Positions 14,079 through 17,532 of a DNA stretch of 20,162 nucleotides are shown piece by piece; the stretch's first letter is position 1; each line of letters starts with the position of its first letter. Below the pieces are notes generated by a model, which was given only the letters and a program-made list of their open reading frames with translations, was not told where the DNA came from and did no database searches. Position numbers and translations under genes: made by a program. Origin of the DNA: a virus (Duplodnaviria; Heunggongvirae; Uroviricota; Caudoviricetes); the IMG/VR virus record IMGVR_UViG_3300045988_024768, positions 1 to 20,162 of that record; one strand, given 5' to 3'.

Positions 14079-16553
14079 ATGAGACAGGAATGTATACAAG
14101 CGGTCCAGCAGGCGGCGCAGCGCACGTTAACGGCGCGAGAAATACAGAACATTGAAGACCGCATTTATCGAAATATGCGCTCCATTGCTCGTGATGACCC
14201 GATGTCGTGGCGACAACTTTCCGAATCAGAGCGGCTGTATCGTGCAGCACAATTGGCATCTGAAGAATTACAGCGAGAAGCGGCATTAAAGAAACGTCGT
14301 GTGGCCCTCACTATAGCCGCACGTCAGAGATTGGATAAATTTATCAATAGCTATCAAGGGGCTGATGGGAAACTTGGCGCTCTTAACCGTACTATTGCTT
14401 TTAATGCAGACGGTAAATCGAATTTCCTCTCTGTTGAATCCAGAACAAAAGCCACCCGTGATTATGCATTGAGTCAATTGCAAGAGGCATTTGAAGCAGT
14501 TGATCCTCGCTTTTTTGGCCTGTTTGAAGATGAAGCTGGCGTGCGTGACCTGGTATATGAAATACGAGGGCAAAATACTGGCAATGCTAAAGCAAGAAAA
14601 GGTGCTAAGGCGTGGAGAGAAGTTACAGAGCTGCTGCGCCGCCGGTTTAATGATGCTGGTGGGGACATTGGCTATCTCGAAAACTGGGGGATCCCTCAAC
14701 ATCATTCTATGGAAAAGGTTGGGGCGGTATCAAAAGATAAATGGGTTAGCGATGTTATAGGTAAGCTGGATCGCAAATATTATACCCGAGCCGATGGACA
14801 ACTGATGAACGATGCCGAGTTGTCTGCATTTCTTGGAGAGGCTTATAACACGATCGCTACTGGTGGGCTGAATAAGCTTACTGATACCGGAATGCGAATT
14901 TCCGGCGCACGTGCTAACCGTGGTAATGCATCACGACAGATACATTTCAAAGATGCAGATTCCTATCTGCAATATCAGCAACTTTATGGCGATCGCTCTC
15001 TATGGGAAATCATGGTCGGTCACCTGGAAGGTATCAGTAAAGATATTGCACTGGTGGAAACATATGGCCCAAACCCCGATCATGTTTTCCGCTCTCTTCT
15101 TGATCAGGTGAAGGCAGAAACGGCAACAGCTAACCCGAGTAAAACCGGTAAAGTCGAGCGGCTGGCGAACAACACAGAGAATCTGTACAACTTTATTTCC
15201 GGAAAGACACAGCCTGTAGCGAATCCGCATATCGCGCGATGGTCTGACAATATCCGCAACTGGCTGGTTGCCAGCAGACTCGGATCCGCGTTGCTGTCAT
15301 CGTTCTCTGATCTTGGAACCATGTATCTGTCTGCGAAGGTTACCAACCTTCCAATGAACCAGTTATTCCGCAACCAGCTTGAAGCTATGGACCCAACGAA
15401 CCGTACAGAACTTGCGCGGGCGCGCCGCGCTGGTCTGGCGATGGAATCTCTACTTGGCAGCGTTAACCGCTGGGCGATGGATAATATGGGGCCGTCTGTG
15501 TCTCGTTGGGCTGCAACGGCGGTAATGCGTGCCAGTGGGCTTACAGCATGGTCAGATGCGCACAAGCGCGCCTATGGCGTAACCATGATGGGAAGCCTGG
15601 GAGAAGTAGTGTCACGGACACCAGACCTTCGTAGCCTCGATTACTCTGATTTTCGTATCCTGAAAAGCAAAGGGATTACTGACACAGACTGGAGCGTATG
15701 GAAGCTGGCGCAACAGGAGGACTGGGGTAACGGTAATAATACGATGCTGACACCGGAAAGCATTATGCGTATCCCTGATTCAGCAGTTAAACATCTTGGT
15801 GAGCCTGAACGTGTGAAATTTGAGGCAATGCGTAAACTGCTCGGGGCGGTGACCGAAGAAGTGGATATGGCGGTCATCACTCCTGGCGCACGTGAGCAAC
15901 TGATAACCGGTTCTGGTATTCAGCGTGGAACATGGAAAGGTGAATTAACGAGAAGTGTTTTCCTGTTTAAATCGTTCCCTATCTCGGTGGTTATGCGTCA
16001 CTGGTCACGCGCTATGGGGATGCCGTCTGCTGGTGGGCGTGCGGCATATATTGCGACGTTTATTGCCAGTACGACCATTCTTGGCGCTTTGTCGCAACAA
16101 CTTAACGACCTTGCGTCTGGTCGTAATCCTCGAGAGATGACAGGAGAAGATGCCGCAAAATTCTGGCTTGGTGCTCTACTGAAAGGTGGTGGTCTTGGCC
16201 TTTACGGTGACTTTTTATTGTCAGATCACACTAGGTACGGAAGCGGCGCGCTGGCGTCGATGCTTGGCCCGGTAGCTGGTCTAGTTGATGACGTAGTGAA
16301 GATTGCTCAGGGCATACCGTTAAATGCTGTGGAAGGGAAGAGTGAGCAGACTGGTGGTGATCTGGTGAAGCTGGGGAAAGGTTTGATGCCTGGTGCGAAT
16401 CTCTGGTACTTGAAGGCGGCTCTCGATCACATGATCTTTAACCAGATGCAGGAGTATTTTTCACCAGGCTATTTGCGTAAAATGGAGCAACGTTCGAAGA
16501 AAGAGTTTAACCAGACATACTGGTGGCGACCTCAGGATGTCACTCCGCAATAA
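14079..16553 (+). CDS. Internal/ejection protein (824 aa)
   Basis: GAGAGG RBS, 5-nt gap after the previous gene. Large late-operon protein between the other ejection proteins and the tailspike. Confidence 0.55.
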   Translation: MRQECIQAVQQAAQRTLTAREIQNIEDRIYRNMRSIARDDPMSWRQLSESERLYRAAQLASEELQREAALKKRRVALTIAARQRLDKFINSYQGADGKLGALNRTIAFNADGKSNFLSVESRTKATRDYALSQLQEAFEAVDPRFFGLFEDEAGVRDLVYEIRGQNTGNAKARKGAKAWREVTELLRRRFNDAGGDIGYLENWGIPQHHSMEKVGAVSKDKWVSDVIGKLDRKYYTRADGQLMNDAELSAFLGEAYNTIATGGLNKLTDTGMRISGARANRGNASRQIHFKDADSYLQYQQLYGDRSLWEIMVGHLEGISKDIALVETYGPNPDHVFRSLLDQVKAETATANPSKTGKVERLANNTENLYNFISGKTQPVANPHIARWSDNIRNWLVASRLGSALLSSFSDLGTMYLSAKVTNLPMNQLFRNQLEAMDPTNRTELARARRAGLAMESLLGSVNRWAMDNMGPSVSRWAATAVMRASGLTAWSDAHKRAYGVTMMGSLGEVVSRTPDLRSLDYSDFRILKSKGITDTDWSVWKLAQQEDWGNGNNTMLTPESIMRIPDSAVKHLGEPERVKFEAMRKLLGAVTEEVDMAVITPGAREQLITGSGIQRGTWKGELTRSVFLFKSFPISVVMRHWSRAMGMPSAGGRAAYIATFIASTTILGALSQQLNDLASGRNPREMTGEDAAKFWLGALLKGGGLGLYGDFLLSDHTRYGSGALASMLGPVAGLVDDVVKIAQGIPLNAVEGKSEQTGGDLVKLGKGLMPGANLWYLKAALDHMIFNQMQEYFSPGYLRKMEQRSKKEFNQTYWWRPQDVTPQ

Positions 16554-16562
16554 GGAAGTGTT

Positions 16563-16736
16563 GTGTTTTTAATTATTTTGAGTGTGATAATTTCTGGTGT
16601 ATTGTTATTTATTGACCGCTACAAATATTTTCTTAACCCTCAGACTCAAGCTATTTGCTGGTTCATCTTTGTTGTGCAGGGAGTAGTTCTTGTTGCAAGC
16701 CTTATTGAGGGGAGGCCTCTTATTTTTACTGGGTAA
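16563..16736 (+). CDS. Putative small 2-TM membrane protein (57 aa, GTG start), AT-rich
   Basis: Hand-translated; below the ORF-track size cut-off. AGGAAG lies upstream of GTG 16563. Translation VFLIILSVIISGVLLFIDRYKYFLNPQTQAICWFIFVVQGVVLVASLIEGRPLIFTG has two hydrophobic helices. AT-rich codons differ from the structural genes. Confidence 0.3.
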   Translation: MFLIILSVIISGVLLFIDRYKYFLNPQTQAICWFIFVVQGVVLVASLIEGRPLIFTG

Positions 16737-16748
16737 ATAGGTGACTAC

Positions 16749-17045
16749 ATGCAAGCTATAGGATTCATTGTTTATATCGTCGTTGGTCTTTTTCAGTTGT
16801 CAGCAATTATGGCTGGGCTTGAATCATGGTGGGGATTGCACTGGATAATTGCAGCCCCCATTGCTTTCATCGTGAGCTATATTCCATTTGTTGGAGCGAT
16901 TGTTGGTATGGTTGGCGCTGTGGATGTATGGCGGTGGGAGTGGTGGCAGGCTGGCCTTCTCTTCTTTGGTGGGATCATCTTTGCTATTGTCTGCGGTGGA
17001 ATGTCATCATTTTTCGAATGGCTATCATTCAGAAAAAGAGCGTGA
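16749..17045 (+). CDS. Small Trp-rich 3-TM membrane protein (98 aa)
   Basis: ATG with AGGTGA upstream. Three hydrophobic segments with 8 Trp at predicted interfaces and a short basic C-terminus (FRKRA). Codon usage more AT-rich than the neighbours. Confidence 0.6.
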   Translation: MQAIGFIVYIVVGLFQLSAIMAGLESWWGLHWIIAAPIAFIVSYIPFVGAIVGMVGAVDVWRWEWWQAGLLFFGGIIFAIVCGGMSSFFEWLSFRKRA

Positions 17046-17077
17046 CATGTCACAGACCGCTTTCGCGGCCTTTAAAT

Positions 17078-17335
17078 TTACCGGGTTTGTTTTCGTAATT
17101 GTTCGGCACAATAGTCGAGATGTGTTTGCAGATCCCGCATAGACATCTGTGAGCTGGTGACGTAGTTAATCAGTGCAGTCAGTTCGGCAAGTGGGCCATC
17201 GACATTAAATCCATCCTTATCGAGATCCTGGAGTAATTTCATCAAGTGCGATCCCTCCACCAGTGACCTGACGCCTCCCGGCGTGTGAATCCTTTCGGTA
17301 AATCCGTCTTCCAGTGGATAGTGATACTGCTGCAT
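17078..17335 (-). CDS. Small acidic protein (85 aa), putatively SOS-regulated; candidate antirepressor/regulatory moron
   Basis: Minus-strand ATG at 17335 with GGAG 8 nt upstream. Translation starts MQQYHYPLEDGFTERIHTPGG. A near-consensus LexA box lies 20-39 nt upstream. The longer 155-aa ORF-track version would place the box inside coding sequence. Confidence 0.6.
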   Translation of the reverse strand: MQQYHYPLEDGFTERIHTPGGVRSLVEGSHLMKLLQDLDKDGFNVDGPLAELTALINYVTSSQMSMRDLQTHLDYCAEQLRKQTR

Positions 17336-17354
17336 CTTATCTTCTCCATGCAAT

Positions 17355-17374
17355 AACTGTATATTTATACAGTA
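17355..17374. promoter_or_regulatory. LexA (SOS) box AACTGTATATTTATACAGTA
   Basis: Matches the 20-nt gammaproteobacterial LexA consensus TACTGTATATATATACAGTA at 18 of 20 positions, with intact CTGT-N8-ACAG and an AT-rich spacer. Located in the promoter region of the minus-strand small gene. Confidence 0.75.
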
Positions 17375-17411
17375 GCAAATAATTTGTTTGCTATCCAGCA
17401 CGTTTTGCAAA

Positions 17412-17438
17412 TTACCCGAAAGGTAATATCTATTCGTG
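17412..17438 (+). promoter_or_regulatory. Conserved intergenic element, copy 2 (TTACCCGAAAGGTAATATCTATTCGTG)
   Basis: Same element as 176-199 with a 3-nt indel. Inverted repeat ATTACC-CGAAA-GGTAAT. About 95 nt upstream of the tailspike ATG. Confidence 0.35.
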
Positions 17439-17532
17439 TCCATGGTTTTTCTATGCATATATGGTTTTTCAGGTAATAGAATGGATGGGACTGCATGCGC
17501 GATGGGCGCACAAGCTATCCGGAGATAATGAC

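Follow-up and report, generated by a model that had tools for sequence, protein, structure and literature searches.

A probable orthologue of the SPC32H antirepressor gene ant behind a LexA box in the late region of an epsilon15/phiV10-like podophage of E. coli

The closest described counterpart of the locus analyzed here is the Ant/Rep system of the Salmonella phage SPC32H, for which a LexA-Ant-Rep induction switch is already known from genetics published in 2013 and a structure published in 2016 (Kim & Ryu 2013, J Virol 87:11775; Kim et al. 2016, PNAS 113:E2480; PDB 5D50, 5D4Z). As summarized in a review that cites Kim & Ryu 2013 (PMC7380047), self-cleavage of LexA leads to the production of Ant, which inhibits the repressor by protein-protein interaction. 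Binding of Ant to Rep has been demonstrated for SPC32H by crystal structure 5D50 and in the associated literature, and one further paper assigns both tetramerization and Ant binding to the C-terminal domain of Rep (PMC9986798). According to the same review (PMC7380047), the underlying logic of a non-cleavable repressor combined with a LexA-repressed antirepressor is shared with Tum of coliphage 186 and with the antirepressors of Gifsy-1, Gifsy-3, and Fels-2 (Shearwin 1998, Lemire 2011). The SPC32H-type Ant differs from these in being a tetramer that disassembles a repressor tetramer. It is also said by Kim and Ryu to be structurally distinct from the antirepressors of Sipho- and Myoviridae. 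An antirepressor gene beside the tailspike gene, likewise in the late region of a temperate podophage, is found in the ImmI region of P22 (ant, arc, mnt; gene 16 to tailspike gene 9), but P22 Ant is a large unrelated protein that is controlled by Mnt, Arc, and the sar RNA and not by LexA. Among the Uetakeviruses of E. coli and Enterobacter, the Bro-N "anti-repressors" (phiv142-3 Orf8, ZX5 ORF4; PHROG 1760) share the Ant module, and epsilon15 gp19 and phiV10 gp24 (PhiV10p24) belong to the same family and locus as SPC32H Ant. The last two are named hypothetical proteins and the LexA box is unmarked in their records, although the epsilon15 record annotates the neighboring repressor and IHF sites and a terminator.

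The stretch of DNA compared here with these systems (the window, 20,162 nt in full) comes from an E. coli temperate podophage of the epsilon15/phiV10 type (genus Uetakevirus) and represents its late (virion) region. It matches epsilon15/phiV10-like podophages of E. coli, Salmonella, and Enterobacter, and the immunity region lies off the window. The features on which the following argument depends are:

Positions 14079-16553, plus strand: open reading frame (ORF) of an 824-aa virion protein.
Positions 16563-16736, plus strand: small ORF, listed with the small membrane ORFs.
Positions 16749-17045, plus strand: ORF of a 98-aa membrane protein.
Positions 17042-17071, both strands: putative bidirectional terminator region after ant, with a hairpin, a 12-bp palindrome, and a U-run.
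Positions 17335-17078, minus strand: ant, 85-aa antirepressor gene identified by homology, with its ATG at 17335-17333 and its TAA stop at 17080-17078.
Positions 17347-17344, minus strand: Shine-Dalgarno sequence GGAG, 8 nt before the ATG, invariant in 10 aligned phages.
Positions 17355-17374: LexA (SOS) box, AACTGTATATTTATACAGTA on the plus strand and TACTGTATAAATATACAGTT on the ant (minus) strand, assigned by consensus match and conservation.
Positions 17397-17369, minus strand: candidate ant promoter, with -35 TGGATA (17397-17392), a 17-nt spacer, TG (17377-17376), and -10 TACTGT (17374-17369).
Positions 17411-17427: putative Rep operator ATTACC-N5-GGTAAT, a perfect palindrome with zero mismatches, between the ant and tailspike promoters.
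The 197 bp between minus-strand ant and the plus-strand tailspike gene: ant-tailspike spacer.
Position 17533, plus strand: most likely start ATG of the tailspike gene, conserved with its GGAG in all relatives.

The original prediction had placed a minus-strand gene directly between the plus-strand virion genes and the tailspike gene. Its strand and general position stand, but the two small plus-strand ORFs at 16563-16736 and 16749-17045 intervene. The tailspike gene most likely starts at ATG 17533 rather than at 17461. The order virion protein, small membrane protein, opposite-strand ant, and tailspike is identical in SPC32H, epsilon15, and BUCT554, and the same order with insertions is seen in phiV10, Tyrion, and BUCT711; in phiV10 extra genes (Bro-N and others) are inserted downstream of ant, whereas the window is without them. 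Owing to a different tailspike body, complete E. coli genomes do not contain the 16000-20162 stretch in its entirety.

The protein carries the first part of the argument. The GGAG, the minus-strand ATG at 17335, and the 85-aa ORF all read as originally predicted, and the product, which starts MQQYHYPLEDGF, is mildly acidic and soluble (pI 5.39, 12 D/E versus 8 K/R, GRAVY -0.57), in agreement with the earlier description of an acidic, non-membrane protein. The sole match in a phmmer search of PDB sequences is chain E of 5D50, "Anti-repressor protein" (E=5.9e-46, residues 2-84 of 85), an entry in which the SPC32H "Repressor" is likewise present at full length. With tblastn, full-length Ant homologues are found in 35 Uetakevirus-type phage records, including SPC32H, SPC32N, epsilon15, and phiV10, and the SPC32H and SPC32N records label the homologue "ant: anti-repressor protein" (SPC32H_020 in SPC32H). 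The ant genes of the window and SPC32H are 85.9% identical at the amino acid level and 78% at the nucleotide level, with dS 1.68 and dN 0.097; the resulting dN/dS of 0.057 means that ant codes for a protein and that purifying selection on it is strong. Identity to the window protein is 98.8% for phiv142-3, 97.6% for both phiV10 gp24 and ZX5, and 82% for epsilon15 gp19, and 39 of the 85 positions are invariant in an alignment of Ant from phages of four host genera.

Family models, by comparison, have little to say about this protein. The Pfam scan gave no meaningful family but a lone sub-threshold DUF724, and at E<=1 no DinI, no other SOS-protein, and no Bro-N domain; the NCBIfam scan gave no model and the PADLOC models gave 0 families at E<=1. 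The PHROG matches are limited to 450, 15539, and 1760, and PHROG 450 (E=2e-47) has the label "unknown function". Among the collections searched, the protein was thus identified through PDB sequences and PHROGs only. This lack of a Pfam, NCBIfam, or PADLOC model together with the uninformative PHROG label accounts for the "hypothetical protein" annotations of the family and for the failure of the original prediction to recognize the protein. Its description as uncharacterized and of no known family must be withdrawn, since the protein is an orthologue of the crystallized and genetically studied SPC32H Ant (86% identity), while its leading guess, a LexA-repressed antirepressor that couples induction to the SOS response, is borne out by that homology and by the same box at the same spacing. 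An AlphaFold2 single-sequence model is all-helical, with a pLDDT of 56.9, and is too poor for a fold search; from the 86% identity to a solved chain, the 85-aa protein probably shares the 5D50_E fold. Longer versions of the gene, a 155-aa reading from TTG 17545 and the 126-aa variants in databases, were rejected as start-codon over-extensions because the extension falls in the regulatory spacer, where indels occur and coding conservation is lacking, and because the GGAG-ATG is invariant.

The window gene and SPC32H ant have the same slot and orientation, the same distance to the LexA box, the same GGAG-ATG, the same terminator with its palindrome GTGACATGTCAC, and the same upstream ATTACC-N5-GGTAAT. 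Their products agree in length to within one residue, the window Ant being one codon shorter, with the missing codon after Met-Gln. SPC32H has a Salmonella host, in contrast to the E. coli lineage of the window; its box spacer is ATGTTTAT rather than ATAAATAT; and the function of the switch is known from SPC32H, while the window phage is known from its sequence. Every sequence-level defining feature of the SPC32H Ant family that is testable here, namely homology, LexA box, and locus, is present. Compared to Tum and the Gifsy/Fels-2 antirepressors, the window protein has no DinI or Tum-type Pfam match and falls into separate PHROGs. The likeness to the Bro-N proteins is confined to one module: the C-terminal 74 aa of phiv142-3 Orf8 share 43% identity with the window protein (E=5e-21), and the PHROG 1760 "anti-repressor" profile matches its residues 27-75. 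In contrast to the Bro-N proteins, the window Ant is free-standing, corresponds to their C-terminal module only, and has its own putative LexA-controlled promoter.

The second part of the argument is the box itself. It differs at two positions from the 20-nt LexA consensus TACTGTATATATATACAGTA and has both CTGT and ACAG intact, exactly as had been predicted (18 of 20 positions, both half-sites intact, 17355-17374). No other site in the whole 20,162-bp window has three or fewer mismatches to the consensus, and such sites were found in 0/100 dinucleotide-preserving shuffles of the window. The box shows the features of an E. coli-type LexA operator, which are a 20-bp palindrome TACTGT(AT)4ACAGTA with CTGT-N8-ACAG located at a promoter. 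The original prediction had also proposed scoring with a LexA PSSM. With an approximate symmetrized matrix based on 21 known LexA sites of E. coli, the box scores 27.4 bits and the next best site in the window 9.2, and the known E. coli sites used, scored leave-one-out, have a median of 19.3 and a maximum of 25.8, all below the window box. The looser core CTGT-N8-ACAG is present in two copies in the window (0.33 expected); the second, at 4188-4203, was judged to be due to chance, having a GC-rich spacer and being absent from the top PSSM scores.

The spacer was aligned for ten phages (the window phage, phiV10, TL-2011b, SPC32H, SPC32N, epsilon15, Tyrion, BUCT554, and two Klebsiella phages). 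In all ten the GGAG-N8-ATG is invariant and the distance from the box to the ATG, with 19 nt in between, is constant. The phages of Escherichia, Salmonella, and Enterobacter in this alignment all share unaltered CTGT and ACAG arms, while the eight central bases vary among the aligned phages (ATAAATAT, GTATTTAT, ATGTTTAT, ATAAGCAT, and ACATATAT). Fixed arms around a drifting spacer are the pattern expected of a LexA operator. The two Klebsiella phages have ATGT instead of CTGT as the left arm and a PSSM score of 18 bits. A natural experiment is provided by SPC32H and its derivative SPC32N, which have just two base differences within a 3,249-bp region. One is a C to A change in the ACAG arm of the box (TATACAGTG in SPC32H to TATAAAGTG in SPC32N), which reduces the PSSM score of 25.0 bits to one of 18.4 bits and affects the base that corresponds to window position 17359; the other affects codon 5 of the tailspike gene. 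Kim and Ryu are said to have reported in 2013 a two-nucleotide difference between these phages and, as the effect of the mutation in the LexA box, constitutive synthesis of Ant, by which SPC32N is driven into the lytic cycle.

A standard sigma-70 scan (>=9/12) gave no promoter in the ant-tailspike spacer. In a relaxed hexamer scan, the candidate ant promoter has 7/12 matches plus the extended -10 TG, and its TGGA.A and TG are invariant in the ten phages, which are from four host genera. The assignment of the ant core promoter is tentative, being drawn from weak hexamers and conservation, but it agrees with the overlap of LexA site and ant promoter that Kim and Ryu reportedly described in 2013. 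As the left arm of the box doubles as the -10 element of the candidate promoter and transcription would start inside the box, at about 17362, this arrangement would be a case of classical occlusion by LexA. At the other end of the gene, the hairpin at 17054-17071 has a 7-bp stem (AGGCCGC-GAAA-GCGGUCU on the ant strand) and is followed by the 12-bp palindrome GTGACATGTCAC at 17042-17053 and then by a U-run on the ant strand and TTTAAATTT on the plus strand. The minimum free energy of the region is -15.2 kcal/mol, with a modest z of -1.5. The epsilon15 record annotates the homologous stem-loop as a rho-independent terminator and the palindrome is also present in SPC32H and epsilon15. It is plausible that hairpin, palindrome, and U-run form a bidirectional terminator.

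The third part of the argument concerns the partner of Ant. With SPC32H Rep as the query, tblastn finds Rep homologues in 36 phage records, including all of those that bear Ant (35/35). The Reps of SPC32H (198 aa) and of the close E. coli relative phiv142-3 (194 aa) contain only HTH_3-type domains by Pfam, and a Peptidase_S24 domain is absent from both of these scanned proteins. The original prediction had asked whether the prophage repressor lacks an S24 autocleavage domain, and in these two relatives it does. Rep in the E. coli relatives is only 42% identical to SPC32H Rep, whereas Ant is 86% identical between the lineages, although the two lineages share one operator motif. The C-terminal region of Rep, which is the Ant-binding domain, aligns without gaps between the E. 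coli-relative and SPC32H lineages. We assume that the Ant-Rep interface is conserved in the E. coli lineage.

On the basis of the site, its conservation, the orthology, the synteny, and the co-occurrence with Rep in relatives, all of which are directly observed, we conclude with high confidence that the 85-aa gene is the orthologue of SPC32H ant in a LexA-Ant-Rep induction switch. We propose that in the lysogen the host LexA bound at 17355-17374 would cover the likely -10 element and transcription start and silence ant, which would be monocistronic. Upon DNA damage, RecA would become active and LexA would cleave itself, and ant would then be transcribed and would be translated from its GGAG-ATG, as in SPC32H. 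Ant would bind and disassemble the Rep tetramer, a protein with an HTH domain and no S24 domain, a step that is expected here from the 86% identity. The loss of Rep from its operators would then begin the lytic programme. The hairpin after the ant stop codon would end the ant transcript and, on the other strand, the preceding late transcription unit. For the window phage, homology to SPC32H thus predicts LexA binding, SOS-dependent expression, and Ant-Rep binding.

Other readings of the locus have to be weighed against this switch. It is improbable, in our view, that the Ant homologue has shifted its role in the E. coli lineage, acting in trans on the repressors of co-resident prophages (cross-talk of the Gifsy/Fels-2 kind) or, instead of inducing alone, partnering a Bro-N/Ant-domain protein such as many E. 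coli relatives encode a short way downstream. The disparity between the conservation of Ant (86%) and that of Rep (42%) is odd under simple Ant-Rep co-evolution and would fit such a shift, as would the second Ant-like domain in phiv142-3 (43% over 74 aa), which is fused to Bro-N and encoded immediately downstream, and the extra Ant-like places that tblastn finds in several other relatives. Overexpression of the ZX5 Bro-N protein pushed ZX5 towards the lytic cycle (PMC9782041), and trans-acting antirepressors are documented in Gifsy phages in the review cited above (PMC7380047). However, Ant and Rep occur together in 35/35 records, the Ant-binding C-terminal region of Rep aligns gap-free across the lineages, and the window is without a Bro-N gene, the small Ant being its only Ant-domain protein. 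The same strict co-occurrence with Rep speaks against a very improbable reading, that the gene is an SOS-induced moron that acts not on the phage repressor but on the host or competing phages, by anti-defence, superinfection exclusion, or DinI-like modulation of RecA. A small, reverse-oriented, LexA-controlled gene inside a structural operon is in a typical position for a moron and neither Pfam nor NCBIfam gives it a functional family, but it shares 86% identity along its entire length with a protein crystallized in complex with its repressor, and matches to DinI or another SOS protein in Pfam at E<=1 are as absent as matches in PADLOC. The original prediction had offered an anti-defence or exclusion effector as its alternative, and with 0 PADLOC matches nothing is in favor of it.

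We give almost no credence to the idea that the box is a non-working operator, an AT-rich palindrome embedded in a promoter and maintained for some other reason, with ant being either a late gene or subject to weak constitutive expression. LexA binding in the window phage is admittedly a prediction, and the ATGT left arm and 18-bit score of the Klebsiella homologues indicate that strict LexA control is not family-wide. Against this, the PSSM score is above those of all the known E. coli LexA sites used, the arms are kept while the spacer varies, as would be expected for LexA contacts, and within the 3,249-bp region SPC32H and SPC32N are set apart by a single further base besides the natural change from ACAG to AAAG. 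Moreover, constitutive Ant would be incompatible with stable lysogeny. The LexA-Ant-Rep switch of the SPC32H type is therefore the reading that we retain.

The retained switch may have an additional layer. The palindrome at 17411-17427 lies 36 nt upstream of the LexA box, and in the ten-phage alignment its half-sites are invariant except for one base (GGTGAT) in phiV10 and TL-2011b, while its 5-nt spacer varies. The homologous site is annotated in the GenBank record of epsilon15 as a protein_bind feature, "repressor; lysogeny". The motif is present in 18 copies in SPC32H and 16 copies in phiv142-3 versus approximately 1 expected, and it clusters beside rep. We regard it as possible, though short of probable, that the palindrome is a working Rep operator, in which case Rep would directly control ant and/or the divergent tailspike promoter in addition to the control by LexA. 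If so, Rep would repress its own antirepressor and Ant would inactivate Rep, giving a double-negative (toggle) loop that would sharpen SOS induction, make induction irreversible, and keep the tailspike gene silent in the lysogen. We found no statement of such a loop in the literature that we reached, and the primary SPC32H papers may already address it.

The gene is common and mostly goes unnamed. At >=95% identity, ant with its regulatory region is found in 529 of 5,426 complete E. coli genomes (~10%), and E. coli prophages at 99% identity are among the matches. The exact protein sequence is recorded from a single metagenome contig, the window itself. Clustering at 90% identity places it among 833 members, mostly named "hypothetical protein [Escherichia coli]"; the label "hypothetical protein" is carried by every RefSeq row displayed and by nearly all of the listed cluster members. 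A 2022 study of ZX5, the one experimental work on an E. coli member of the group that our literature search turned up, tested the Bro-N protein as "the" anti-repressor and not the small ant (PMC9782041). That paper makes no mention of SPC32H and its lysogeny-related annotation consists of ORF4, ORF12, and ORF21 only (PMC9782041). ZX5 also carries the small Ant homologue that is 97.6% identical to that of the window, and this is absent from its list of lysogeny-related ORFs.

An 86%-identical orthologue in a regulatory layout identical to that of SPC32H adds little new biology, and the practical value of the present analysis is in the annotation of ant where it is now labeled "hypothetical protein". 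Recognizing ant in such prophages, which are common in APEC, ExPEC, and O157, would mean that they are probably SOS-inducible by means of an antirepressor and not by autocleavage of the repressor.

In the late region, the terminator hairpin adjoins a short inverted repeat:
Window 17042-17053: perfect 12-bp palindrome, GTGACATGTCAC.
The stop codon of the 98-aa membrane ORF falls within the repeat, which is kept in both SPC32H and epsilon15 and may either bind a protein or contribute to a terminator of tandem hairpins. The late operon upstream of the tailspike ends at a putative bidirectional terminator, and the tailspike gene appears to have its own promoter, apart from that operon. The elements considered here are as follows:
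Window 17454-17482, plus strand: promoter-like TGCATA-17-TAGAAT, ~50 nt before ATG 17533, where the tailspike starts.
Window 17411-17427: perfect ATTACC-N5-GGTAAT palindrome, between the ant and tailspike promoters.
Window 175-191: ATTACC-N5-GGTAAT copy with 1 mismatch, preceding the first late ORFs.
The stretch GGTAATAGAAT, which includes a putative operator half-site, GGTAAT, is invariant in all ten relatives aligned. In the tailspike itself (window 17461-19812), matches are limited to the N-terminal head-binding part, with coverage ending near window position 18200, and the body beyond this part has no match in complete E. coli genomes or phage records, so that its receptor-binding module is absent from those collections.

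Upstream of the antirepressor gene ant, the LexA box of the Klebsiella phages lies ~25-45 nt from the gene, has ATGT rather than CTGT as its left arm and scores 18 bits versus 27 bits on an approximate PSSM built from 21 E. coli LexA sites; LexA control of ant may be weaker or altered in these phages. One further site was considered:
Window 4188-4203: second CTGT-N8-ACAG, CTGTGGGTCGTAACAG, between the 330-aa ORF (3181-4173) and the next ORF.
Its GC-rich spacer and low LexA PSSM score indicate that it most likely arose by chance.

Two relatives encode Bro-N proteins, both genes being absent from the window phage:
phiv142-3, 5424-6080: Bro-N 'anti-repressor', directly downstream of the small ant.
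phiV10, 2071-2655: Bro-N protein.
The C-terminal domain of the former shares 43% identity with Ant across 74 aa, giving phiv142-3 two Ant-domain proteins, and the match of the phiV10 protein to Ant is confined to ~31 residues. The ZX5 study tested the Bro-N protein alone (PMC9782041).

SPC32H and phiv142-3 show a 16- to 18-fold excess of the ATTACC-N5-GGTAAT motif, whose copies cluster next to the repressor gene rep and whose epsilon15 annotation reads 'repressor; lysogeny'; the two window palindromes are probably Rep operators. The motif is unchanged from the Salmonella to the E. coli lineage, and Rep (SPC32H 33739-34335 versus phiv142-3 32364-32948) retains only 42% identity, whereas Ant retains 86%. 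Judged by these identities, there is an asymmetry of evolutionary rate between antirepressor and repressor. If the palindromes are indeed Rep operators, control by Rep of late, tailspike and/or ant transcription would be implied.
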